From a virus (taxonomy: Duplodnaviria; Caudoviricetes), in IMG/VR virus record IMGVR_UViG_3300038436_000236, positions 1 through 55,741 of that record: DNA of 55,741 nucleotides. One strand, given 5' to 3'. The notes beneath the pieces were generated by a model. That model had not been told where the DNA came from and did no database searches. It saw nothing but the letters and a program-made list of their open reading frames with translations. The position numbers and the translations under genes were made by a program. Shown here one piece after another: positions 2,170 to 39,915 of the stretch (position 1 is its first letter; each line of letters starts with the position of its first letter).

Positions 2170-3330
2170 CTACTGGACTTTGTCGGGCTTATCTGACATA
2201 AACGGTAGCTTATCTTCCAGGATTTCAAATTCTTCTTCTTTTGCCACCAGGTGGGTGTAGTGCTCAGTCATTTCAAGGTCGGAGTGCCCGAGACGGTCGC
2301 GTGTGTCCTCTTTCGAGGCCCCGGACCCTTGCAGGATGGTGGAAAATGTGTGGCGGGCATCATGTAGGCGGATGTTGTAGCCGTGCTGGACGAAAAACTT
2401 TTTTATCTGGTCGGTGATTGTGCTCGGGTGGTACTGCTGCACTACGGGGCCGGACTTTTTAGAGAGCTTCAGCAGTTCGGTGTATAGTCTATGCCCGATT
2501 CCTACCTTGCGCGGCTTTCTGTTTTTGGTGATTGAACCGGGGAGGTTGATCAGGCGGTGGTCGAGGTCTATCATTGACCATTCGAGTTTTAAGAGTTCTG
2601 ACCGACGCATTCCACATCCGAAATAAAAGAGCAGGAACAGTTCGAGGAAACCACCGAGGCGGATTTTCCCTTTTGCTTTTTTGTCGTTTTCTGCTGCGAA
2701 CTGCAGGAGTATTGAAACATCCTGCGCGGTAATGGCTGTCGGTTTGAATTTTTCGTGATCGTCGATTTTGAGAGAAGGGACCCGCGCCATGGGGTTTACT
2801 GTCACAACGCCATTTGCAAGGGCGAGATCGAAAAGTCGCTTGATTTCCTGCACATGCTTGTTGACTGTCGGCTTTGACAGGCCGCGTTCTTCGGCGAGGA
2901 CGCGCCGGAGCCTGATGCCGTCCTGATGGGTAAGGGATGCGATCCTTGTTTTTTCTCCCCATACTTGCGCGATATTCTTCAGGCGGCTTTTCCGGCTCTT
3001 GATTTCTGCGGCGCTCACGTCCCACGATTCCTGATAGTCTGTTATCGCTTCTTGCAGGTTTTTTTCTTGCGCGTTGCCTGCGCCTAGTCGTGTGGCGTCC
3101 TCTTTCGATATGAGCCCTTCGTTTTGCCAAACGATCAGGTCTTTTGCATCGTATCTGAGGCGCGATGTCGCTGCCTCAATTTCTGTTGCTACTTGCTTCT
3201 TGTGCTGGGAGAGGATTTTTTTTGTGTATGTGCGATAGCGATAAATTATCCCGCCGTCCGGAAAACAAACTTTGAATGTGAGCCGGTAAATTGAGGAGTC
3301 GCGTTTTTTGTAGACTGACAGCTTTACCAT
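2170..3330 (-). CDS. int: Tyrosine recombinase (phage integrase)
   Basis: Catalytic motifs GMRRSELL (R), TKNRK (K), LHDARH (HxxR), LGHSD, HYTH (Y); adjacent to tRNA. Confidence 0.95.
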   Translation of the reverse strand: MVKLSVYKKRDSSIYRLTFKVCFPDGGIIYRYRTYTKKILSQHKKQVATEIEAATSRLRYDAKDLIVWQNEGLISKEDATRLGAGNAQEKNLQEAITDYQESWDVSAAEIKSRKSRLKNIAQVWGEKTRIASLTHQDGIRLRRVLAEERGLSKPTVNKHVQEIKRLFDLALANGVVTVNPMARVPSLKIDDHEKFKPTAITAQDVSILLQFAAENDKKAKGKIRLGGFLELFLLFYFGCGMRRSELLKLEWSMIDLDHRLINLPGSITKNRKPRKVGIGHRLYTELLKLSKKSGPVVQQYHPSTITDQIKKFFVQHGYNIRLHDARHTFSTILQGSGASKEDTRDRLGHSDLEMTEHYTHLVAKEEEFEILEDKLPFMSDKPDKVQ

Positions 3331-25631: not shown

Positions 25632-25684
25632 ACGTTTGCCCGTCATTATCATGCATGAGTTATAAGGAATCGGAAGGTGCGCGA

Positions 25685-26374
25685 ATGGAAAAAGCTTGTT
25701 TGAAAATTGAGTATGTCCCTATTTCGCAGTTGATCCCGTATGCGGCGAATGCTCGAACGCATAGCGATCAGCAGGTGGAACAGATCGCGGCGAGTATCGA
25801 CGAATTCGGATTTGTCAATCCTGTCCTTGTTGGGCAGGACGGCGGGATTATCGCGGGGCATGGTCGAGTTCTGGCGGCTGAGAAGAGGAAAATGGCCGAA
25901 GTGCCTACTATTGTGCTCGGGCATTTGTCGGACGCTCAGAAGCGGGCATTCATCATTGCTGACAACAAGTTGCCGGAGAATGCTGGTTGGGATGAAGAGC
26001 TGTTGAAGTCTGAGCTTGAGCGGCTCAACGATGACGGTGTTGACCTGACTGTTCTCGGATTTTCCGATAGCGAGCTTGACGAACTGATGAAAGAGGACTT
26101 GAACGATATCCGAAACGATGGCGGGGCTGGTGGCTCTATCGAGCAGGCCATCCAGCTCAAGCCGCCGCGTGAATATGTCCTTGTCGTCTGTGCGGATGAT
26201 GACGGGCTCGAATTTGAGAAATTGAAAGATATTCTCGGGCTGAAGCCTGTCCGGCGCGGCGGGTATAAAATTGGGTCGCCTTTTGATGATATCGGGACTC
26301 AGCGGGTCGTCAACGCAGCTCAGGTAATCGCTTTGATTGAGGGGAATGAAGATGCTGATAGCGATCCCGAGTAA
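25685..26374 (+). CDS. ParB/Srx N-terminal domain protein of the type found next to terminase genes
   Basis: LIPYAANARTHSDQQVEQIAASIDEFGFVNPVLV..IIAGHGRVLAA..IADNKL..GWD. Confidence 0.9.
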   Translation: MEKACLKIEYVPISQLIPYAANARTHSDQQVEQIAASIDEFGFVNPVLVGQDGGIIAGHGRVLAAEKRKMAEVPTIVLGHLSDAQKRAFIIADNKLPENAGWDEELLKSELERLNDDGVDLTVLGFSDSELDELMKEDLNDIRNDGGAGGSIEQAIQLKPPREYVLVVCADDDGLEFEKLKDILGLKPVRRGGYKIGSPFDDIGTQRVVNAAQVIALIEGNEDADSDPE

Positions 26375-27068
26375 GGGTAGGGCCGGAGTGCTGAAGTCTC
26401 AGGCCCTTATCACTTGCGCTTCTGTTTTTGTGCCTGAAAATGAGGTTGAGGCGTACAAGCAGGGGGGCGCTAAGAATGTTGTTGGCGTCCCGTCCGATAT
26501 CCGGGGGATTACGAGAACTCGCAACTGGATTCTGGATTATAGCGACGATCCGTGGGTGGTGATGATCGATGATGACTTGAAAACTGCTGGCTGGTGCGAG
26601 CTGTTGCCGTTTAATGGCAAGCATCGCAAGCTGACTGAAGGCCAGTGGCTGGGCGAATGGGGCAAGTTGTTTGAGGTCACAGAGGGGATGAATTATCGAA
26701 TATGGGGCACATCTACGGACAGCTCCTTGCGGGCGATTTATCCGTATAAGCCTTTCATGTTTCAGTCATATGTCACGGCGTCATGCATGGGGATCATAAA
26801 CAGCTCAGGTATCCGATTTGATGAGAATTTCCCGGTCAAGGAGGATTACGAGATCTGTCTCAGGTGCGTGAAAGAGGATGGCGGCATTGTCGCTGCTCGT
26901 TATTTGTATTGGGAGAACCATCATTGGTCAGGTGACGGTGGGTGTAAGGATTATCGGACCAAGGCGATGGAGAGAAAAGCTATTTTGAATTTGCAGAAGC
27001 TTTATCCAGGTCAGGTTGATTATGCGACTGACAGGAAGGGCGAGTTCTGTATCGGGCTCAACTTTTAG
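26346..27068 (+). CDS. GT-A fold glycosyltransferase, GREB1/TET-associated-like
   Basis: IAIPSKGR, TRNWILD, VMIDDD (DxD), KEDYEICLR, GGC. Confidence 0.7.
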   Translation: MKMLIAIPSKGRAGVLKSQALITCASVFVPENEVEAYKQGGAKNVVGVPSDIRGITRTRNWILDYSDDPWVVMIDDDLKTAGWCELLPFNGKHRKLTEGQWLGEWGKLFEVTEGMNYRIWGTSTDSSLRAIYPYKPFMFQSYVTASCMGIINSSGIRFDENFPVKEDYEICLRCVKEDGGIVAARYLYWENHHWSGDGGCKDYRTKAMERKAILNLQKLYPGQVDYATDRKGEFCIGLNF

Positions 27069-27086
27069 AGTTATAGGGTGGTGATT

Positions 27087-27551
27087 ATGTCGGCTCCAAA
27101 AACAAGGAAGAAAAATATACGGGCTGTCGAGTTCAGGAGACAGTGCCTTGACCTGCGGAAACGCGGGTACACGTATCAGAAAATCGCTGAGGCATTGAAC
27201 AGCAGAAGCGGGACGGTAGAGAAGGGGATCAAAAAAGCCCTGGCTGAAATGATAGCGGAACCTGCGGCTGAAGTCCTGCTACTTGAGCTTGCGCGGCTTG
27301 ACTTGCTACTCATCCCGCAGATGTCGGCGGCGATCAGGGGGAATCAGGGGGCCTGTGACAGGGCCATAAAAATCATGGAGCGCCGGGCGAAATATCTCGG
27401 CCTTGATAAGAAGGAAGAGGCGGACGCGAACAAGCTTTCTCCTGACGATATTGTCAAGATGTTCGACGCCTTTAAGAGCTTCTTGCCTATCCCTGGCGAT
27501 GACGGGCAGGAGCTTGAAGAAGCTGACGGCCTGGAACCTGAAGAAGCCTGA
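27087..27551 (+). CDS. Terminase small subunit (HTH)
   Basis: LDLRKRGYTYQKIAEAL..ELARLD..IMERRAKYLGLD; coupled to the large subunit gene. Confidence 0.75.
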   Translation: MSAPKTRKKNIRAVEFRRQCLDLRKRGYTYQKIAEALNSRSGTVEKGIKKALAEMIAEPAAEVLLLELARLDLLLIPQMSAAIRGNQGACDRAIKIMERRAKYLGLDKKEEADANKLSPDDIVKMFDAFKSFLPIPGDDGQELEEADGLEPEEA

Positions 27552-28846: not shown

Positions 28847-28865
28847 ATTGCTGGGGGGTGTTATT

Positions 28866-30272
28866 ATGGCTCAGATTGAAAACCATCCGGAATATGCGGG
28901 ACGGGCGGCTGATTATATTTATTACCGGGACCACTTCGAGGGCGGGAGGAACTACGCGAATAAATCGGAAAAGTATCTGCCGAAATTTTCGCTGGAGAGC
29001 GACGAAGCTTATAAAAACCGAAAGGACAGGTCGGTTTATATCAACTATTGCGAAACGGTGATTTCTATTTACCAGGGCGCTATCTGGAAAATTGCACCGT
29101 CTCGGGTGCTGCCTGATAGCCTGGCTGGTTTCGGCAATGACGTTGACCTCATGGGCACCTCGGCCAATGATTTCTTTATGGGAGTCACGGAACAGGCCCA
29201 GGCGGTCGGAATGCATTTTGTCATGGTTGACGCTCCGGTGCGTGAGGATGATGGCATGACGGTTGGCGATGCTAAAAAGTCGCGCCTGCGACCGTATGTC
29301 GCTGGGATTCCTGCGGAGAATGTCAAGGCGTGGTCAATCGAGACTGAGGACCCGGCAAGAATCGGACAGTTTAACTTTTTGGTGATTGAGGAGACTTTCT
29401 ATTCAGGCAATGATCCGGCTGTCAAGATGGTGCATGAAACCCATGCTCGCGTCCTCTATCCGGACAAGTGGGAACTGTATAAAAAAGAGGGGACCGGATA
29501 CACGCTACTGAAAAACGGTGTGAATAAAATAGGCGAGGTCGCTGTGGTCCCGTTCTATGGACGGCGGCGCGGGCATTTCGACGGGGAAAGCGATCTGAAA
29601 GAAATTGCATCTCTGGCTCAGAAGATCGCGAATTGGGTGTCTTGGCTTGACGAAGATATGCTTTATCATGCGGTGCGACAGCTGGTCATCAAGACGAATC
29701 AGGACATCACAAAAATGGGCATCGGCTCTAATCGTGCTATTCGGTTAAACCCTGACGATGGCGAGCATGCTTTCATCCTGGAGAGCGCGGGGAGCGCGTC
29801 AAATGAGCTGTGGAGTTCGGTCGTCAAGCTGCAGGATTTGATTTTCCGGCTTGCCACGAATCAGATCGCAAGCGTCAAAGAGACGGCGCAGGTTGAATCT
29901 GCTGAAAAAAAGGAAGCGGACTATAAAGAGCTGGTCAGCCTTTTGAAAAAGAAGGCTGGCTCATTCGAGCGATCGGAGAAAAAGGTATGGGAATTGATGG
30001 CGAAGTTCGCGGGCGTCGAGGGCTCTGAAATTGACGTGTCTTACCATCGGGAATTTGAAATTACGGAGCGCACCGTTGAGGGGTGGCGGGAATTAATCGG
30101 AGCGGGGATTTTGTCCGTCATTGATTGGTATATGGCCGAAAATCCTACTGTCACGGACGCGAAAGAGGCGGAAAAGCTGCTGAAAGAAAACCTCAAGCTC
30201 CGGGCGCTGGTAAATGACAAGGTCGGCATTGGCGATATGCTGGCGGGGGCTGGCGATGGGGGCGCGGAATAA
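28866..30272 (+). CDS. Portal protein (DUF4055/SPP1-like)
   Basis: Position after terL; HPEY..YLPKF..E.DEAY..R..YINY, DVDLMG, VMVDAP, RPYV, VVPFY. Confidence 0.85.
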   Translation: MAQIENHPEYAGRAADYIYYRDHFEGGRNYANKSEKYLPKFSLESDEAYKNRKDRSVYINYCETVISIYQGAIWKIAPSRVLPDSLAGFGNDVDLMGTSANDFFMGVTEQAQAVGMHFVMVDAPVREDDGMTVGDAKKSRLRPYVAGIPAENVKAWSIETEDPARIGQFNFLVIEETFYSGNDPAVKMVHETHARVLYPDKWELYKKEGTGYTLLKNGVNKIGEVAVVPFYGRRRGHFDGESDLKEIASLAQKIANWVSWLDEDMLYHAVRQLVIKTNQDITKMGIGSNRAIRLNPDDGEHAFILESAGSASNELWSSVVKLQDLIFRLATNQIASVKETAQVESAEKKEADYKELVSLLKKKAGSFERSEKKVWELMAKFAGVEGSEIDVSYHREFEITERTVEGWRELIGAGILSVIDWYMAENPTVTDAKEAEKLLKENLKLRALVNDKVGIGDMLAGAGDGGAE

Positions 30273-30273
30273 A

Positions 30274-30543
30274 ATGTCCGAACAGTTCGAGCTAGATATT
30301 GCAAAGAAGCTGAACAAGCATCTTGATGAGCAAGACGCCCACCAGGACGTGGTTAAAGCGTGGTTCGCTGGATGGTTCGAAAAGAATCTTGATCCTGTCG
30401 CGCTGGCGAATGAGCCGGACAAGTATCTTGACGAAATGGGCGAAAAGGCGATTGCGGCTTTCCGGGTCCGGTTCCTTCCTGCTATCGAAAAGATGGGGAG
30501 TGAATTCGGGAAATCAATCTATGAAAAGGCGGTTGAAAAATGA
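30274..30543 (+). CDS. Hypothetical protein
   Basis: Tightly packed after portal; ATGA overlap with next gene. Confidence 0.65.
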   Translation: MSEQFELDIAKKLNKHLDEQDAHQDVVKAWFAGWFEKNLDPVALANEPDKYLDEMGEKAIAAFRVRFLPAIEKMGSEFGKSIYEKAVEK

Positions 30544-31397
30544 AATGTTTTTACCATTCGAGGGACCTTGACGGGCACTGCGCCGGGGCTATCGTGAAGA
30601 TGTTCAACCCGGAATGCGAGCTGATCGGAATAGACTATGATCAGCCGTTTGACATGAGTTCAATCGGTCTGCTGGAAATCATCTATATGGTCGATTTTTC
30701 TTTGCCTGTTGCGCAAATGCTCGAACTGCAGGACTTTTCAGAATTGATCTGGATTGACCACCACAAGACCGCTATGGAGGCAAAGGAGCTTGCCGGGGTA
30801 CTCGGGAAAAGGGGCGTTGATTTTTCCGGGTGTGAGCTGGCGTGGATGTATTTTGCCCCTGGAACGCCTATGCCGCCTGCCGTGTATCTGCTCGGGCGGT
30901 ATGACGTGTGGGACCATTCGGCTAACCCTGACGTGCTGCCTTTTCAGTACGGCATGAAGAAGTTCAAAAGCACTGCGCCTGAGCGGGCGGGGTGGCTGTG
31001 GCAGATGTTATTCAGCGCCGGGTGGGATGACACGATAATCAAAGAGATCTGCGAGGCTGGCCGGTATATCGAGGATTACGAGCGGTCAAAGTCTGCATTC
31101 GCTGCTGGGATTACGGCGTTCGAAACTTATTTTGCTGGTCATCGGGCTATCGCGATGAATGTGTGGCCTGCAAGCTCTATCATGTTCGCTTCTGTTTTTG
31201 ATCCGGCGCGGCACGATATCATGGTTGCGTTCGGGATCGTCCGGGGCAAGTGGTCAGTGTCGGTTTATGGCGGGAATAATGAGGTTGACGCGGGGGAGAT
31301 CGTCAAGCGATACGGGGGCGGCGGTCATAAAAGCGCTGCTGGTTTCGTCTCTGACGTGTTGCCTTTCAGTTGCGGGGTTGATGAGGTGGCTGCATGA
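30540..31397 (+). CDS. DHH/DHHA1 phosphoesterase
   Basis: YHSRDLDG, MVDFS, WIDHH, GGGGHKSAAGF. Confidence 0.92.
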   Translation: MKCFYHSRDLDGHCAGAIVKMFNPECELIGIDYDQPFDMSSIGLLEIIYMVDFSLPVAQMLELQDFSELIWIDHHKTAMEAKELAGVLGKRGVDFSGCELAWMYFAPGTPMPPAVYLLGRYDVWDHSANPDVLPFQYGMKKFKSTAPERAGWLWQMLFSAGWDDTIIKEICEAGRYIEDYERSKSAFAAGITAFETYFAGHRAIAMNVWPASSIMFASVFDPARHDIMVAFGIVRGKWSVSVYGGNNEVDAGEIVKRYGGGGHKSAAGFVSDVLPFSCGVDEVAA

Positions 31398-31582
31398 GCG
31401 ATAGCATAAAAGACCTTGGCCCGCGGCTGGATGGTTGCCGCGCTTATCCTGGCGGTAAAGTCCCGGTGACGTGGTGTAAGGAAAATCAAGGAGAATGGTG
31501 CGGGCGGTGTAAAAACAGGAGGGTTAAGAGGGGCGGCGTGCTTCAAGTGCGTGACGGTGTGGTGGGAACGGTGGCGGCATGA
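31394..31582 (+). CDS. Small Cys-containing hypothetical protein
   Basis: ATGA overlaps on both sides. Confidence 0.55.
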   Translation: MSDSIKDLGPRLDGCRAYPGGKVPVTWCKENQGEWCGRCKNRRVKRGGVLQVRDGVVGTVAA

Positions 31583-32214
31583 TCCATATGAATTTGAGGA
31601 AAGAAGGTGCTTGGCATATCAGTTTCCCGGCTGGGGGGTTGACGTTGCCTGCTTCGTTTTTCAAGTACGCGGCTGAAGTCCTGGTAAAGGATATTCAGGG
31701 CCGGATGAATCGCGGCGTTGGCGCTGATAATCAGTTGATGGTCGATAATGCGGCGAACACGCGGAGCGCGGCGGGGTATGCTGGGCAACTCGGGAAGCTT
31801 AAAAAGGCGGGGACGTATGGAGGGAAGAGCTTCGGCGAGCGAACGGGGTGGAAGCGTAAGCGGCCTTCGGTGGCTTCCGGCTGGCTGCGCGATCATATCA
31901 AAGTTGCCTCGGTCGGCGTAAATGGCGCTGTTGTCCATGTCGAGGATGCGCCTTACCCTGATAGCGAGTATGGTGCAACAACCCTGATGGCGGCAAACTT
32001 TCTGCAGGTCGGGACCAAGGCGCATGTGATCCGGCCACGCGGGCAATGGCTGCTCAGGTTCCCCACGTCCAGGGGGGTTGCTTTTGCAAAACAGGTGAAT
32101 CATCCGGGTACTGTTCCGCGTGCCTTTTTCGGGATTTCGCCTGCCTATGAGAAGCAGATGATGAAGCGGGTCGAGCAGATCATCAGCAAGATTATCGAGG
32201 ACGGTTTTAAATGA
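31579..32214 (+). CDS. Virion morphogenesis / neck protein (Mu gpG or HK97 gp10-like)
   Basis: SGWLRDHI..GTKAHVIRP..VNHPGTVPRAFFG. Confidence 0.65.
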   Translation: MIHMNLRKEGAWHISFPAGGLTLPASFFKYAAEVLVKDIQGRMNRGVGADNQLMVDNAANTRSAAGYAGQLGKLKKAGTYGGKSFGERTGWKRKRPSVASGWLRDHIKVASVGVNGAVVHVEDAPYPDSEYGATTLMAANFLQVGTKAHVIRPRGQWLLRFPTSRGVAFAKQVNHPGTVPRAFFGISPAYEKQMMKRVEQIISKIIEDGFK

Positions 32215-35200
32215 GCAATTCGAATGATGGGCTGTCAAAAGATGACCTGTATAAAAAATATAATATCGTCAAGATGGAGCTGGAGATTACCGGCGCGGAG
32301 CTGAAAAACAAAATCGGGAAAACGAAAATTTCCGTTTCCGATTATGTTTCCAGGCTGAAGGCGCAGGGGATGAGTGCGAAAGACATTCAGGCCCTGCTTA
32401 TCTCCGATTTGAAGACTGGTGGCCCGCTGTTCTCTGAGCTGCGGGCCACGTTCGTTTCCCCGTTCTCTTCTTCTGCTTCGAGGATTACCGCGACGGTTGC
32501 CAATTTTGCGGCTGCGGGCGGTGATGCGGCTCAGAAAATGGTTTGGATCGCGTCGTTCAAGAACACATGCACTTCCTGCGTTCCACGGCATGGGGTTGCA
32601 AAGTCCTATGCGGAATGGGTCAAGGTTGGGCTCCCTGGGAATTTCGGCTCGTATTGCAACGGCTATTGTCAGTGCCGGCTGTTCCCGATTGAATACCCTG
32701 GCGTTGCTGACATGAAACTGCCGAATAATCGGAAGCAGTGGAAGGCATTGATGACGGGCGGGGATAAGGGGAAATTGCCGGGTGCCCTGGCCGAGGCTGA
32801 AAGGTTGCTGGCGAAGCAGCAGAAGGTTGTCGCTGTGCGAATAGCGGCGGCGGAAAAGCATGCTGCCGACCTTGAAGAAAAGGCGAAGAAGCTGAAAGAC
32901 GATATCGAGATATCGCAGCAGGCCCTGGCGGCACAAAAAACGCTCCAGGACGCGGCGAATGATCACCTGGCTACGCTCACCTTCATTGCTGACGGAAAAA
33001 CGCCTACGCCTTCCGTGCTGATCCCTGGTAACGGCAATATACTCGGCGGCGGACGGGCTACTGTTCAGAGCTGGAAGAGGTTCAGAAAAACGGTCAAGGA
33101 CGAACCTGATTTTGTCCTGCCTGCCCATCTGGAGGGGAAAAAGGAACTTGCGTCCGGCGTGATCATCAAAGAGGCGGACGGTAGAATATGGCTCGTTGAG
33201 CCTCGGGACAATTTCGGCGGTTATAAAATGACCTATCCGAAAGGTCGGCTTGAGTCTGGCCTTACCCCTGCTCAGAACGCGGTGAAAGAGGCGTATGAAG
33301 AAACGGGGCTCAAGGTCGAGCTGACTGGATTTGTCGGAGATTACGAAAAGACGGAAACTTTCACGCGGTATTATGTCGGGCGGCGGGTCGGCGGAGATCC
33401 GGCTTTCGCCCATTGGGAGAGTAACAGGGTCCGGCTGCTCACACCTGATGAAGCGCGGAAATATCTGAATGTGCCTGTTGACCGGGAAATCCTTGACGAT
33501 TTCCTTGCTGGTGGACAGCGCAAGGAGCTTGCGGATAGGCTGCGGCTGATCCCTGGGAGCCAGAAGGGGACGAACGCGGGCGGCATGTATGTCGATTCGG
33601 TGTCTGGCGAGAAGTACTATGCAAAGTTCTACGGGGACGCGAAACAGGCGCGGTCTGAGTTTGCCGCAAACGAGATAGGCAAGGCGCTTGGCGTACAGAC
33701 CCCTGAAAGTCAGTTGCTTGAAATGGTAGGGCCTGGCGGGGAGGCGCGGCTTGCTATCGTCACGAAGTGGGAAGATGGGCTTGAACGGCTGAACTTGCGG
33801 AATAATACTTTGCTGCTGGAGAACGCGGAAGAGCTTGCAAAGCATCATCTGAATGCTGCGCTGGTGGCAAATTGGGATGTTGTCGGGTTCGAGTTTGACA
33901 ACCTGCTGCGGATGCCAAACGGCAGGATTGTTGTTGTTGATTCTGGCGGCGCATTCAGGTTCCGGGCTCAGGGCGCGGGGAAGGCGTTCGGGCGCGATCC
34001 TGCGGAGTTCGACAGCCTGCTTGATTCTGCGGTCAATCGGCAATCAGGTTCCGTTTTTTCTCCTGTCGTTGAGGGCTACACGTCAAAGCAGCCGGAAAAG
34101 CTCATCGTCTGGCTGCGTGGACTTGATGATGCTGCTATAAGGGACGTATTCGACCGGTCCGGGGTCCGCGACTGGGAGTCGATGGCGGAAATTACTGCTG
34201 CCCGGCGCGACGCTCTGATCAAAAGACTTGAGCGGTATATCGAGCGGCCCAAAGAGACGGATGCACGGGTTATCGTCAGCATCAAGGAGGCTGTTGAAAA
34301 AATCAAGGCGTCGCGGCTCAACGGGTATGCTATCCCCCTTGATGAGGATGATATCGAGGATGTGTATGTTCTCTTTTGGGAGGAGATCGGAGCGGACGGA
34401 AATAAGAAGCTGCGGGCTCGGATGAAATTGACGCCGCGCGGCGGTGAAAAGGTCGATGCTATCTTGCTTGATGAGCTTGGCGCACCGGCTGTGACTTCGG
34501 CGAGGAGGTTTTCGAAAACCGGGCCTCAGCCTTTGAGCGATGATTTCTACTATGACAAGGTCATGGCCGGGGTAAAGAATATTGCTTACCATGTAAAAGA
34601 CGGCGTCTATAACCTTGAGAAAATTGCACTCATGAAGGCGCAGGAGGTGCCGCTTAAAAAATTGATGGCAAGCGGCTCAGTGCAGCAGAAGCAAATGGCG
34701 ATGAAATATTTGTACGCGATAGATGACGCGGAAAAGGCCATGGCTGCGAAAGGGATGCCGGGGAAGCTAGAGCAGTTCCTGTATGAGGCCCCCAAGGGCA
34801 ACGTTGAATCGGTTGCGGAGAAAGTGCGCGGGGCGGCTCGGCCAAAGGTTGAACCGTTTCGGGCTGAGGGTAAAGCTGTTGATAATGGCAAGGCTGCGGT
34901 CCATGGGGACAACACCCCTTCCTACCTGTCTGATCAGCGGCTATACTCTTTCGATTTGTCCGGGGACGTGACGGCCCGCTATGTCCCGTGGGGCTACGGA
35001 GCGAACAAGTATGCCTTGCGCGGGCAGATGGATTTGTTCATTGATGGGGGCGCGACTGAAAAAAATATTCAGGACGCAATTGATGCAATCGCTGATCTTG
35101 GCATCAAGAATAAGATGGCTGATCCTGACTATATCGAGCTGGTCTATCTGCATAAGCACGCTTATCTACGCGGTGACGATCTGAAGGCGGAATACCTGGT

Positions 35201-35906
35201 GATCTGGAATAATACATCCCTGCAGACGAAAGAGAAGGTCGAGAAGATCAAGGACTATTTCGAGGCTGACGGGTTAAAAGTTCGGGGGAATCCTGCTTAT
35301 ATGCCGATGGGGGAGTATAATCATTTTGGCCAGGGGCGTATTGTGTGGCGTCGGTTCGATATCTCTCGGGAAAAAATCAAGGAAGAAATGCCGGATTTCC
35401 GTATTTATCATTCTCTGACTGGTGGCGCGTCTGTGGATAAATTGATTGATAATGTCTTGAATTCTGGTGGCGAGTTTTCCGCGACGAATGAGCGGCTCAG
35501 GCGCGGGATTAACGCTTTAGGTACAAGCTCACAAGAGGCGGATATGAGCACGGGCGGTGCTGGGTATTTTTTCACGCGTATAACAAAAAGCGCAGCCAGA
35601 AAAGGGGCGATTGAATGGGATGTGTCAGAACTTTCCCGAATTGACTCTGTCAGTTACGAAGGAGACTTTTACGGTGAGGTTAAAGACAATTCAGTAATCC
35701 GCCGAAGAAAAATAAATATATCTGGGTGGAAAGCGAATGCTGCATTCGGTTCTAACGAGACAATTTTCAAACATGGTTTGGATATCTGGCACGTTACCGC
35801 GATTAATACAAGCAGCCTTGTTGAGCGGTTGAAGGTTCTTGATGTGTTCAGGAAGCATAAGATTTCCGAAATAAACGGGAAAAAAATTGAGGATATAGTC
35901 AGATGA
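32211..35906 (+). CDS. MuF-type minor head protein fused to Nudix, kinase-like and putative ADP-ribosyltransferase domains
   Basis: MuF-like W..TCTSCVPRHG..CNGYCQC; Nudix box PKGRLESGLTPAQNAVKEAYEETGL; kinase-like GTNAGG..YYAK..EFAA..NWDVVG..DN..VDSGG; C-terminal YH..YFFTR..NETIF. Confidence 0.75.
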   Translation: MSNSNDGLSKDDLYKKYNIVKMELEITGAELKNKIGKTKISVSDYVSRLKAQGMSAKDIQALLISDLKTGGPLFSELRATFVSPFSSSASRITATVANFAAAGGDAAQKMVWIASFKNTCTSCVPRHGVAKSYAEWVKVGLPGNFGSYCNGYCQCRLFPIEYPGVADMKLPNNRKQWKALMTGGDKGKLPGALAEAERLLAKQQKVVAVRIAAAEKHAADLEEKAKKLKDDIEISQQALAAQKTLQDAANDHLATLTFIADGKTPTPSVLIPGNGNILGGGRATVQSWKRFRKTVKDEPDFVLPAHLEGKKELASGVIIKEADGRIWLVEPRDNFGGYKMTYPKGRLESGLTPAQNAVKEAYEETGLKVELTGFVGDYEKTETFTRYYVGRRVGGDPAFAHWESNRVRLLTPDEARKYLNVPVDREILDDFLAGGQRKELADRLRLIPGSQKGTNAGGMYVDSVSGEKYYAKFYGDAKQARSEFAANEIGKALGVQTPESQLLEMVGPGGEARLAIVTKWEDGLERLNLRNNTLLLENAEELAKHHLNAALVANWDVVGFEFDNLLRMPNGRIVVVDSGGAFRFRAQGAGKAFGRDPAEFDSLLDSAVNRQSGSVFSPVVEGYTSKQPEKLIVWLRGLDDAAIRDVFDRSGVRDWESMAEITAARRDALIKRLERYIERPKETDARVIVSIKEAVEKIKASRLNGYAIPLDEDDIEDVYVLFWEEIGADGNKKLRARMKLTPRGGEKVDAILLDELGAPAVTSARRFSKTGPQPLSDDFYYDKVMAGVKNIAYHVKDGVYNLEKIALMKAQEVPLKKLMASGSVQQKQMAMKYLYAIDDAEKAMAAKGMPGKLEQFLYEAPKGNVESVAEKVRGAARPKVEPFRAEGKAVDNGKAAVHGDNTPSYLSDQRLYSFDLSGDVTARYVPWGYGANKYALRGQMDLFIDGGATEKNIQDAIDAIADLGIKNKMADPDYIELVYLHKHAYLRGDDLKAEYLVIWNNTSLQTKEKVEKIKDYFEADGLKVRGNPAYMPMGEYNHFGQGRIVWRRFDISREKIKEEMPDFRIYHSLTGGASVDKLIDNVLNSGGEFSATNERLRRGINALGTSSQEADMSTGGAGYFFTRITKSAARKGAIEWDVSELSRIDSVSYEGDFYGEVKDNSVIRRRKINISGWKANAAFGSNETIFKHGLDIWHVTAINTSSLVERLKVLDVFRKHKISEINGKKIEDIVR

Positions 35907-36247
35907 TATCTGCTGAACTGAAAAATAAAATTGGCGCTCTGGTTGACAGCGGAAGTGTTTTTACGTTCCACGAAATGGATATCGCGCCGGTGGTCGGGCT
36001 CATTGATTTTGGCGATGATACAATTTATTGGTGCGACTGGTTCCCAGAAGATCAGCACCATTTCCATGTTTTGGTTGTCTATGGGGTGAGGATGATCAAC
36101 AAATGGAATTTTGAGTTGCTCACTGACAAGGGGAGGGTTTCGTTGAACGCGCTTGAACCGTATGAGGAGCGGTACAAATTGAATTGGCAACGGTGGGTTG
36201 ATTGTAGGGGCGGCTATAAAGAAGATTTGCGACGGATAACCGAATAA
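35903..36247 (+). CDS. Hypothetical protein, candidate immunity partner of the MuF protein
   Basis: ATGA-coupled to the MuF gene; 114 aa, acidic and aromatic. Confidence 0.6.
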   Translation: MISAELKNKIGALVDSGSVFTFHEMDIAPVVGLIDFGDDTIYWCDWFPEDQHHFHVLVVYGVRMINKWNFELLTDKGRVSLNALEPYEERYKLNWQRWVDCRGGYKEDLRRITE

Positions 36248-36254
36248 GGCTTGC

Positions 36255-36479
36255 TCACTCTGCCTTTTCGCCGCAGATCGCCCAGGCTATACATGCTGCC
36301 CATGCAACAAATGTCCAGCCTAATGCGATGCTCACTATCGACAGGCTTTTTATTTTTTTAACCTTCCTGGCGCGGGCTATGAATACCGGGATGAGGTATA
36401 TTAAAAGGGCGAATGCTGCTGGTATTCCCATGTGCCATAGGTTGTTTATTGCGCTCAGGAACTTCTCTAATAAAAACAT
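36255..36479 (-). CDS. Superinfection immunity membrane protein (T4 Imm-like)
   Basis: IYLIPVFIARAR..IALGWTFVAWAACIAWA matches the YFLP..A..R..LGWT..GW..AL.WA family pattern. Confidence 0.8.
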   Translation of the reverse strand: MFLLEKFLSAINNLWHMGIPAAFALLIYLIPVFIARARKVKKIKSLSIVSIALGWTFVAWAACIAWAICGEKAE

Positions 36480-38080: not shown

Positions 38081-38854
38081 ATGCCTTTCAAAGCAAAAGT
38101 TGATGAAAACGGGTTTGTGGTGGTCAAAGACGGCAATGCGGTGTTGCTCAACGACGCAGGGGAAGAGGTCATGTTCACGGCACCTGAGAAGGTCAGCGAG
38201 CTTAACCGGGAATCTGCGAGCCGCAGGCATGAAATCAAAGAGCTGAAAGAAAAGCTCTCGCCGTTTGATGGCCTGGATGCTGCCGAAATCAAGGAGCTGA
38301 AGGCGTTCAAGGAGAATAACAAGGACGCAAAAACTCAAATCGAGCAGATCAAGGCTCAGATCGCCAAAACCTACGAGGAACAGATCGCCGGGAAAGATTC
38401 CGTCCTTTCGGAAAAAGATAAGCTGATCCGCAAGTTGTCTGTCTCAAATCAGTTTGTCGGGTCAAAGTTTTTGACGGAGAACACCGTTTTGCCGGCTGAA
38501 ATCGCTGAAGCGTATTTTGGCCAGTATTTCGAGGTGCGGGACGGCGGGTCTGTGGTCGCAAAGTTCGGAGGCAATGATATTTATTCCAAGACCAAGCCGG
38601 GGGAGCTGGCTTCGTTCGAGGAAGCGATTAAGCACATTGTCGAAAATTCCGCGTTCAAGGACGCGATCATGCGTGATCCTGGCCAAAGCGGAACGGGAGC
38701 GCTGGGTGGACAGAGAAAGCCCGCGACGGGCGGCGGGGTGAACCCGTGGATGAAGGAAACAAGAAACCTCACTATGCAAAGTAAAATTGCCTCGGAAAAC
38801 CCGCAACTCGCCAGCAACATGAAGGCGGCGGCGGGAATTCAGACCGGGGCGTAA
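38081..38854 (+). CDS. Capsid scaffolding protein (DUF6651-like)
   Basis: Directly upstream of capsid; coiled coil, QFVGSKF..AYFGQYF..IYSKTKPGELASFEEAI, C-terminal NPW..NLTMQ. Confidence 0.8.
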   Translation: MPFKAKVDENGFVVVKDGNAVLLNDAGEEVMFTAPEKVSELNRESASRRHEIKELKEKLSPFDGLDAAEIKELKAFKENNKDAKTQIEQIKAQIAKTYEEQIAGKDSVLSEKDKLIRKLSVSNQFVGSKFLTENTVLPAEIAEAYFGQYFEVRDGGSVVAKFGGNDIYSKTKPGELASFEEAIKHIVENSAFKDAIMRDPGQSGTGALGGQRKPATGGGVNPWMKETRNLTMQSKIASENPQLASNMKAAAGIQTGA

Positions 38855-38874
38855 AATAAAAAGGACGGTAAAAA

Positions 38875-39915
38875 ATGCCCCCCACTTTAGGCGCAGATAT
38901 CACAATTGTTCCGGAAGAATTTCTTCCCCATGTAATCGAGTACTCCACGAAGTTGTCGGCGCTTGTTCAGGCTGGCATCGTTATTCCTGACCCTGTTTTC
39001 GACGCGGAAGCGAAGAAGGGCGGGAAGCTGATTGATATGCCATTCTGGAAGGATGTCGATGATGATTCGCAGGTCATTGACGACACTGTTGACACCACTA
39101 TCAACCCCATTGACCAGAGCGGTGATATTGCGGTCAAGCTCATGCGGGAAAATGCGTGGGGTGCGTCTGACCTGTCCGCTGCCCTGGCCGGGTCTGATCC
39201 GGTTGACTCTCTGGCTCAGATGATCGGCGGGTACTGGGCAAGGGAGGAGCAGCGCGTTTTGATGTATGTTCTTAACGGGGTGTTTGCCGACAACCTTGCG
39301 AATTTCACGGGTGATCTGATCTATGACGCGTCGGTCGCTGATATTGCCGACGCGACATATGGCAACTATCTCTCCGGCGAGGTCATCATCGACGCAAAAT
39401 CGCGGCTTGGTGACGCACACGGGAAATTGACGGCGATTGCTATGCATTCCGTGCCGTACCACAACCTGGAGAAGCTCGGCCTGGTCAAGTATATCCAGAC
39501 CATCAGCACTGACGGCACGACCACGACCACGTCCGTGGCGCAGGGCGAGCCGAATCTTGTTGCAACCGGCATTCCTACCGTGTTCGGTCGGCGTGTTGTG
39601 GTTGACGACACGCTGCCCGCTGTCGCCGTGACTGGTGGGTACAAATACACGTCTTATCTGTTCGGGGCTGGCGCGATTGCCCGCGGTGAAGGTACGCCGA
39701 AGCACCCGTTTGAGATGGCGCGTGTCGCAAAGCGCGGAATCACAGAGATCTACCACCGAAGAAACTTCATTCTGCACCCGCGTGGTGTCAAGTTCCTTAA
39801 TGCCAGCGTTGCAAAGCAGTCGCCGACGAATGCGGAACTGGCCCTTGCCGCCAACTGGTCGAGGGTGTGGGAAAAGAAAAATATCCGGATTGTCAAGCTG
39901 GTAACGAACGGATAA
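38875..39915 (+). CDS. Major capsid protein
   Basis: IVPEEF..ALVQAGI..GGKLIDMPFWKD..AGSDP..AIAMHS..GRRVVVDD..YLFGAGAI..ILHPRG..NWSRV. Confidence 0.92.
   Translation: MPPTLGADITIVPEEFLPHVIEYSTKLSALVQAGIVIPDPVFDAEAKKGGKLIDMPFWKDVDDDSQVIDDTVDTTINPIDQSGDIAVKLMRENAWGASDLSAALAGSDPVDSLAQMIGGYWAREEQRVLMYVLNGVFADNLANFTGDLIYDASVADIADATYGNYLSGEVIIDAKSRLGDAHGKLTAIAMHSVPYHNLEKLGLVKYIQTISTDGTTTTTSVAQGEPNLVATGIPTVFGRRVVVDDTLPAVAVTGGYKYTSYLFGAGAIARGEGTPKHPFEMARVAKRGITEIYHRRNFILHPRGVKFLNASVAKQSPTNAELALAANWSRVWEKKNIRIVKLVTNG

Follow-up and report, generated by a model that had tools for sequence, protein, structure and literature searches.

The stretch of DNA analysed here (the window) is the complete 55.7-kb IMG/VR provirus record IMGVR_UViG_3300038436_000236, and our subject is a large gene in its head module, P0001, together with the small gene that directly follows it, P0002. 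P0001 (32211..35906; + strand, as are all of its parts) was defined by its open reading frame (ORF), translation and position, and encodes a 1231-aa polyvalent head-module protein. From the N-terminus onwards we recognise a divergent MuF-like region, a predicted coiled-coil linker, a Nudix hydrolase domain, a CtkA-like atypical kinase domain, a beta-rich middle part and a C-terminal DarT-like domain with the predicted fold of ADP-ribosyltransferases (ARTs). A first-pass annotation of this DNA had listed the ORF, the Cys/His motif, the coiled-coil stretch, the Nudix domain, the kinase-like block and a C-terminal block, and all of these were confirmed at their places. It had also described the protein as carrying three enzyme domains and an unassigned middle region, and on this point our analysis leads to a different picture.

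Amino acids 449-1231 of P0001 align as a single block, at ~30% identity, to the C-termini of many MuF proteins of family PF04233. An exhaustive search with aa 690-1231 returned 746 cluster representatives at E ≤ 1e-3 (clusters formed at 50% identity), 235 of them at E ≤ 1e-30. In the best 150 of the 746 representatives, the match stops within ~40 residues of the C-terminus, and the proteins are mostly 1000-3200 residues long. Kinase, middle part and ART occur together in 161 of 170 ART-bearing members, and of the nine exceptions seven are fragments no longer than 558 residues. The three parts are one conserved ~780-aa module that forms the constant core of the family, and it is the Nudix domain that behaves as a variable add-on. 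P0001 itself has full-length relatives that are 72% and 53% identical, and 42 homologues that share words with it; since these 42 are joined by the 746 cluster representatives found with the C-terminal 542 aa, we regard the ORF at 32211..35906 as real.

The proteins differ upstream of the module. PF04233 lies near the N-terminus in 22 of the 23 long members that were scanned, and the interval between the MuF domain and the module holds Nudix domains (five members), Alt-type ARTs (three members), zeta toxin, GNAT or HNH domains, or inteins. Cassettes thus vary in the middle of the protein and the C-terminal core stays constant, an arrangement that is therefore the reverse of a polymorphic toxin. 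The likeness that had been drawn to MuF toxin/immunity systems with a variable toxin end does not hold in this respect, because the C-terminus is constant here. In two members, P0059 and P0166, intein splicing domains are inserted directly after the MuF domain.

We identified relatives of the module on 249 IMG/VR contigs. Loci in bacterial genomes were gathered from GTDB with a degenerate DNA pattern; 80 were fetched, of which tblastn confirmed 40, the other 40 being chance matches as the degeneracy of the pattern predicted. The 40 confirmed loci come from many phyla, and the prophage hosts comprise Proteobacteria, Verrucomicrobiota, Desulfobacterota, Chloroflexota, Acidobacteriota, Nitrospirota and others. 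A single one of 50,697 deposited phage genomes carries it, and in part: gp15 of the culturable cyanophage Pseudanabaena phage Pan1 has the middle part and the ART without the kinase, as do P0143 and P0036. No Pfam, PHROG or NCBIfam model covers the module. Being present in one deposited phage genome and in no family library, it has therefore probably gone unnoticed so far.

The first part of the module is a CtkA-like atypical kinase domain (aa ~449-690; 33555..34280). An AlphaFold model of this block, built with 55 relatives, is confident (predicted local distance difference test (pLDDT) 93.2, predicted template modelling score (pTM) 0.89) and gave 158 Foldseek matches in the PDB at E ≤ 1e-3; among the matches listed, all are kinases. 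PI4KIIalpha (14.7), CotH (14.1), HipA (12.9) and LepB (11.5) are further structural matches, and the model as a whole has a bilobal kinase fold. The motif residues that had led the first-pass annotation to a kinase-like block (K472, E483, N554/D556, D563/N564 and D577-x-G-G) are shared by 139-171 of the 173 family members. The lysine is present in 170 of the 173, E483 in 158 (with aspartate in 12 more), D556 in 171, N564 in 144 (the other 29 having gaps) and D577 in 170. Their roles as ATP-binding lysine, helix-C glutamate, catalytic-loop aspartate and asparagine, and metal-binding aspartate are assigned by motif order and not by superposition. Searched against Pfam at E ≤ 10, aa 440-720 gave noise only, with no membership of Pkinase, Kinase-PolyVal, PI3_PI4_kinase or HipA_C; relatives of the domain gave sub-threshold hints of PI3_PI4_kinase (E 0.023) and HipA_C (E 0.14). 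Other relatives of the kinase domain are found in portal fusions, some of them together with Nudix and an Alt-type ART, and adjoining WGR domains.

The kinase is followed by the middle part (aa ~690-1045; 34278..35345), a saddle-like domain rich in beta strands, with a helical bundle inserted into it, which possibly serves in substrate binding, and by the DarT-like ART-fold domain (aa ~1050-1231; 35358..35903). An AlphaFold model of aa 690-1231 (542 residues, 62 relatives) reached a pLDDT of 91.8 and a pTM of 0.81. Compared with the PDB by Foldseek, the 542-residue model had no match at E ≤ 1e-3. The sole high-probability matches are DarT structures, namely 8baq (probability 0.98, template modelling (TM) score 0.52 by target) and 7omu (probability 0.92). 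The seven top rows are all DarT entries, from four organisms and covering ~75% of the DarT chain, and the remaining structural matches over the ART-like region are likewise ARTs; the model thus supports an ART fold for aa ~1050-1231. The top-ranking entries of the viral structure library BFVD are uncharacterised proteins of small size, from Tupanvirus, Pithovirus, iridovirus IIV6 (422L) and a betabaculovirus. A DarT-related family has been reported in baculoviruses, ascoviruses and iridoviruses (Iyer 2022, PMC9503650).

The putative active site of this domain is formed by H1067, R1097, Y1119 and E1183. Of 170 members, 158-169 retain the C-terminal motifs YH (H1067), YFFTR (Y1119, R1123) and NET (E1183); H1067 is present in 165 of them, Y1119 in 158, E1183 in 168 and R1097 in 169. 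Three aspartates, D1111, D1145 and D1152, are present in all 170. According to DSSP, in the model H1067 ends the first strand, Y1119 starts the next long strand (YFFTR) and E1183 starts a later strand (NETIFK). Counting linearly from the reported alignment ranges places H1067 near F18/T19 of DarT1, R1097 near R52, Y1119 near Y71 of DarT2 and E1183 near E152 (DarT positions as given in PMC11543638), and the four residues may accordingly be read as putative equivalents of these DarT residues, an assignment by offset and not by superposition. The first-pass annotation had proposed an H-Y-E-like ART at this end of the protein; the modelled fold and the conservation of H1067, Y1119 and E1183 agree with that proposal; a match to an ART sequence family did not emerge. 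Searches of the PDB by sequence with the non-Nudix parts of P0001 and with the family profile yielded no matches other than helical de novo proteins and choline kinase (E 0.65), and Pfam, PHROGs and NCBIfam found nothing besides Nudix in the whole protein or in five segments of it.

The module has a cognate, conserved partner. P0002 (35903..36247, + strand; 114 aa), a candidate inhibitor or immunity protein, shares an ATGA overlap with P0001 at 35903-35906, as the first-pass annotation had seen, and a small ORF follows the big gene across 80 viral loci, mostly with a 4-nt overlap. Fifty-five of these downstream ORFs form a single BLAST cluster with P0002. A profile of 23 partner sequences places the partner directly downstream in 78 of the 80 viral loci (one exception leaves no room for it on its contig) and in 32 of the 40 confirmed genome loci. 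A word-based search had returned one relative and made P0002 look like an ORFan, a view that the locus analysis overturned.

Partner proteins are 114-195 aa long and share one invariant histidine (H55). They belong to no Pfam, NCBIfam or PHROG family, and 13 of 13 tested against Pfam gave noise at E > 0.03. A macrodomain or NADAR signature, as expected of a DarTG-type antitoxin, was found neither in these 13 nor in P0002. ESM Atlas offered nothing useful on the partner (best score 0.83; P0002 model with a pLDDT of 0.41), a tblastn search of the phage collection with a typical partner had no match, and fused or longer forms of the partner were not found, which is weak evidence.

The N-terminus of P0001 carries a divergent MuF-like region (aa ~41-163; 32331..32699) in which the MuF 'NCRC' motif takes the variant form CxxC...CxC. 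In a profile-profile comparison with 23 MuF cores, hhalign aligned the Cys/His motif at aa 110-163 with the MuF core W..D..C/H..G...P..NCRC (P 5.9e-4, probability 29%), which weakly supports a divergent MuF domain at the N-terminus. No match to PF04233/TIGR01641 was found in Pfam searches with the whole protein or with aa 1-180, even at E ≤ 10, and NCBIfam had no match to the N-terminus at E ≤ 0.1; a HMMER profile built from the N-termini of 47 relatives, together with a local jackhmmer search, did not find P0001. The gene order is TerL, portal, four ORFs (109 aa, DHH, 62 aa and 211 aa), P0001, partner, scaffold and major capsid, and P0001 thus lies in the head/packaging module downstream of the portal, which is the placement of MuF-type genes. 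The first-pass designation as a MuF head protein fits the gene position and is weakly supported by the Cys/His motif. A predicted coiled-coil linker with A/K/E/Q-rich heptads follows (aa ~190-255; 32778..32975), and within it aa ~193-251 have only weak Pfam matches of coiled-coil type, for example to KASH_CCD (E 0.008).

The Nudix hydrolase domain (aa 312-431; 33144..33503) matches PF00293 over profile positions 3-134 of 134 (E 9.5e-13; 48.7 bits, cut-off 21.1), in agreement with the first-pass annotation, and PHROG nudix families at about 1e-7. Its closest solved relative by sequence is the Ap4A hydrolase 3i7u (E 1.7e-9). The Nudix box consensus is Gx5Ex7REUxEExGU, with metal-binding glutamates; the box of P0001, G-RLESG-L-TPAQNAV-KEAYEETGL, keeps the E-x2-E-E core and the G-U end and departs from the consensus in its first glutamate (replaced by L) and its arginine (replaced by K), as does the homologue of phage Jeremy. 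The nearest phage relatives are stand-alone Nudix genes in ~90-kb phages (40-45% identity). One Nudix protein, 42% identical and from Yersinia phage fHe-Yen8-01, was annotated by its depositors as a 'particle associated protein'. Nudix domains occur in 5 of the 23 long family members and in 3 of the 80 viral loci, and the domain is a variable cassette, not a constant part of the family. A 1905-aa protein from Paraburkholderia/Burkholderiaceae, P0007, combines five tandem Nudix domains with the kinase-like domain.

The window as a whole has the layout of a temperate siphophage, with an integrase (2170-3330) that marks the phage as temperate, replication genes, DNA methyltransferases, packaging and head genes, tail genes and endolysin genes. 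A TerS-like gene precedes TerL (27551), and the portal gene (28848-30272) matches phrog_145 (E 1.7e-66). The scaffold gene starts at 38081 and the major capsid gene at 38875, the two together spanning 38081-39915; the tape measure gene (44930) and the central fibre gene (50118) lie further downstream. The ORF at the position of the small terminase (27078-27551, +) matches phrog_645 (E 9.2e-22), whose label 'Rnase E' looks misleading here, and has a weak sigma-70 region 4 match. Just upstream of the terminase genes is a pair of adjoining genes (26337-27068 and 25655-26374, both +), one with a match to phrog_842, 'beta-glucosyl-HMC-alpha-glucosyltransferase' (E 5.4e-18), and the other of ParB-like nuclease/methyltransferase type; this region may have a DNA-modification function.

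Inspection of the immediate neighbours of P0001 led to three further observations. The 211-aa ORF (31579..32214, +) shares an ATGA overlap with the start of P0001 at 32211-32214, belongs to no Pfam, PHROG or NCBIfam family and occurs in one of 80 related viral loci (L004, the closest relative), and it is a lineage-specific gene that possibly lies outside the system. Between the portal gene and P0001, the head module also contains a DHH/DHHA1 phosphoesterase (30540-31397, +; phrog_4771 E 2.4e-34, Pfam DHHA1 E 9.4e-6), which could degrade (cyclic) oligonucleotide signals or pAp. Both genes were considered as parts of the system and rejected, each being present in one of the 80 loci. A 74-aa ORF on the opposite strand (36255-36479, -) matches Imm_superinfect (PF14373, E 1.2e-11). 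It sits between the partner and scaffold genes, in a stretch of low GC content (36.2-38.1 kb; 0.44 vs ~0.52), and looks like a moron.

We lean, with a confidence slightly above even, towards the view that P0001 belongs to a packaged and ejected enzyme set that modifies host targets at the start of infection and is silenced by its partner in the producing cell. The analysis shows the domain folds, the conservation of catalytic-type residues, how constant and widespread the module is, the co-occurrence of the partner and the place of the gene in the head module; what we infer about packaging, ejection, enzymatic activity, targets and inhibition by the partner runs as follows. The divergent MuF-type N-terminal domain would probably bring P0001 into the capsid, where a few copies may be packaged that would leave with the DNA. 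In the infected cell, an ATP-using kinase and an NAD+-using ART would covalently modify host macromolecules at the very start of infection, and the Nudix domain may hydrolyse products or signals that are of ADP-ribose type or are other dinucleotides. Until packaging, the partner would most likely bind the ART, or the module as a whole, and keep it silent in the producing cell. The DarT-like fold and the conserved arginine would make nucleic acid as plausible a target as protein. A bolder proposal, which we consider rather unlikely, is that the module represents a phage counterpart of DarT in many phyla that is head-packaged, kinase-coupled and partner-silenced, and that ADP-ribosylates nucleic acid after ejection. 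Its targets would then be host single-stranded DNA, stalling replication or repair, or the phage's own genome ends, which would be shielded from nucleases, and the kinase and a TBP/CYTH-like middle part would prepare or hold the substrate.

Several observations weigh against a packaged ART that acts on the host. The N-terminal MuF homology of P0001 is weak. No sequence model ties the C-terminal domain to ARTs: Pfam returned nothing at E ≤ 10 for 19 of 19 members, PF14487 had no match in the window at E ≤ 10, and an hhalign comparison of the ART-like family with 17 DarT sequences from actinobacterial genomes was not significant (P 0.019, probability 2.4%; six unrelated control pairs gave P 0.13-0.66). 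The fold search used the whole 542-residue model as its query rather than the single ART-like domain, and the DarT equivalences derive from strand positions and linear offsets, not from superposition. In addition, 3 of the 23 long members carry a second ART, of Alt type, which fits poorly with the DarT-like domain as 'the' effector ART. The ART-like fold may thus support another chemistry, such as that of an NAD+ glycohydrolase, a Tpt1/KptA-type RNA 2'-phosphotransferase-like enzyme or an enzyme modifying small molecules, or the likeness to DarT may reflect a common alpha/beta arrangement. We regard these alternatives as improbable, given that the seven leading structural matches, from four organisms and with their ~75% chain coverage, are DarT without exception, and that the other matches are also ARTs. 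In the only local alignment that the non-significant hhalign comparison yielded, E1183 stands opposite the glutamate of the 'AE' motif in DarT, which we take to be the catalytic glutamate of DarT.

The constancy of the C-terminal module across many phyla, unlike fast-changing effectors, is a further point against an effector role and could indicate a core function in the virion or in infection. On such an account the module would serve the virion or genome delivery, by controlling ejection, by protecting or marking genome ends, or by regulating head assembly through auto-modification, and the partner would act as a chaperone of assembly or as an additional subunit of the virion. This account, the strongest of the alternatives, agrees with a module that is always C-terminal in MuF proteins across phyla, with true effector cassettes varying upstream of it, with a partner that is nearly universal and subunit-like, and with the nature of MuF proteins as head components touching portal and DNA (Iyer 2017; Jamet 2017). 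Nevertheless we judge it unlikely. The catalytic-type residues of both enzyme folds are near-invariant, suggesting that chemistry is under selection and not shape alone, and most MuF proteins of sequenced phages lack the module, which, being carried by one in 50,697 phage records, is no general requirement of MuF function. The retention of middle part and ART without the kinase in P0143, P0036 and Pan1 also speaks against this account. A MuF polymorphic toxin as defined by Jamet, with the ART as an antibacterial toxin against competitors of the lysogen and the 114-aa protein as its immunity protein, would suit a temperate phage, the MuF position, a toxin-type fold predicted at the C-terminus and a small coupled ORF downstream, and there is a characterised prophage ART with immunity proteins, Bxa (PMC11699363). 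However, a constant C-terminal module and partner around a variable middle are the reverse of the defining feature of such toxins, and the partners form one homologous family rather than a diverse set of immunity proteins, which makes this explanation quite doubtful.

If the enzyme set is indeed delivered with the phage DNA, its interest lies in its timing, since virion-packaged enzymes act before phage gene expression and so decide the first minutes of infection. To our knowledge, few such enzymes are understood, T4 Alt and the N4 virion RNA polymerase being examples, and we know DarT-type ARTs hitherto as a host weapon against phages. An active P0001 ART would place a DarT-type ADP-ribosyltransferase on the phage side of this conflict, linked to a kinase and a dedicated partner, and the kinase-ART module with its partner would be a defined three-part system that is experimentally tractable. 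Should the phage-encoded counterpart of DarT prove true, it would constitute a new class of enzyme that is delivered by the virion, modifies nucleic acid and comes with its own antidote.

A comparison with known systems reveals which elements of this arrangement have precedents. Earlier publications describe effectors fused to MuF domains, polyvalent proteins, ARTs packaged in the head, fusions of Nudix to MuF, and small immunity ORFs (PMC5512222, PMC9503650, PMC5576092, PMC11699363). P0001 resembles the polyvalent and MuF-fused effectors (Iyer 2017, PMC5512222; Iyer 2022, PMC9503650), which are large multidomain proteins of head genes with a MuF-type N-terminus followed by unrelated enzyme domains, and it unites a Nudix domain, a kinase fold and an ART fold in one head-module ORF. 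Fusions of ARTs, kinases and Nudix domains to MuF or portal proteins have been predicted to be packaged and injected (PMC5512222, PMC9503650). The ARTs described there are of the H-Y-D Tox-ART-HYD2, R-S-E Alt/VIP2 and N4-ART types and the kinase is a truncated Ser/Thr/Tyr kinase, whereas the P0001 ART appears to be a DarT-like H-Y-E type and its kinase is CtkA/PI4KII/CotH-like. We found no fixed kinase-middle-ART module or conserved partner in the text of the polyvalent-protein papers, as distinct from their supplementary files. PMC9503650 was the only paper to turn up on MuF together with DarT in phages, and we found no link between the two in its text; on CtkA and phage kinases, the literature led to H. 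pylori papers and unrelated work. More generally, a module of CtkA-like kinase, middle part and DarT-like ART with a conserved partner was not found in our literature search, the polyvalent-paper supplements falling outside its scope.

The two structural relatives that give the enzyme domains their names differ from them in several ways. DarT of the DarTG systems (8baq, 7omv, 7omu, 7yk3; PMC11543638) is a stand-alone host toxin of ~200 aa directed against phages, whereas the ART-like domain lacks sequence-level membership of that family and is joined to a kinase at the C-terminal end of a phage head protein. The DarT antitoxin is a macrodomain or NADAR hydrolase, and the partner bears neither signature. 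Helicobacter pylori CtkA (3akk/3akl/3akj) is a stand-alone secreted protein with reported Ser/Thr kinase activity; the kinase domain of P0001 is part of a larger protein, is 16% identical to CtkA and shares no sequence family with it.

MuF-fused effectors with small downstream immunity ORFs are an established class (Jamet 2017, PMC5576092; Iyer 2017, PMC5512222). In Bacteroides stercoris, the Bxa/Bsi/BAH system comprises the prophage ART Bxa and its binding inhibitor and immunity protein Bsi (PMC11699363). Like P0001, Jamet's MuF toxins and Bxa belong to temperate phages, lie at the MuF position, have a C-terminus of ART type and are immediately followed by a small ORF. They differ in having variable C-terminal toxins with unrelated immunity proteins, in place of one conserved module-partner pair; P0001 thus shows the small downstream ORF and not the combination of conserved N-terminus and variable C-terminal toxin. 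We also considered Jamet's Ct_MAD as a possible earlier description of the module and rejected it, Ct_MAD being the last 251 aa of proteins of Mu gpF type that are 410-493 aa long (PMC5576092 Tables S3, S4).

Another parallel is provided by Pseudomonas phage Jeremy (locus L001, 2078-7063), Morganella phage Mecenats66 (L003, 1988-6939) and Pseudomonas phage Dolphis, the first two being ~90-kb phages whose loci encode a kinase-ART protein, a small ORF and a Nudix gene. Across the three phages, the large proteins are ~1210-1240 aa long and share the kinase-like domain of P0001 (32% identical over 225 aa), with an ART at the extreme C-terminus; an ORF of ~165 aa lies directly downstream, and the Nudix gene is 40% identical to P0001 aa 254-434. 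They differ in that their ART is of Alt/VIP2 type (PF03496), their Nudix is a separate gene, their small ORF falls outside the partner family and the proteins are not at the MuF position by the portal. Kinase, ART and Nudix are thus a recurring set in such phage proteins, some of them MuF- or portal-fused. By analogy, an ART at the same position in the Jeremy-type proteins suggests that an ART there is a recurring design and argues for the DarT-like domain of P0001 as a working ART.

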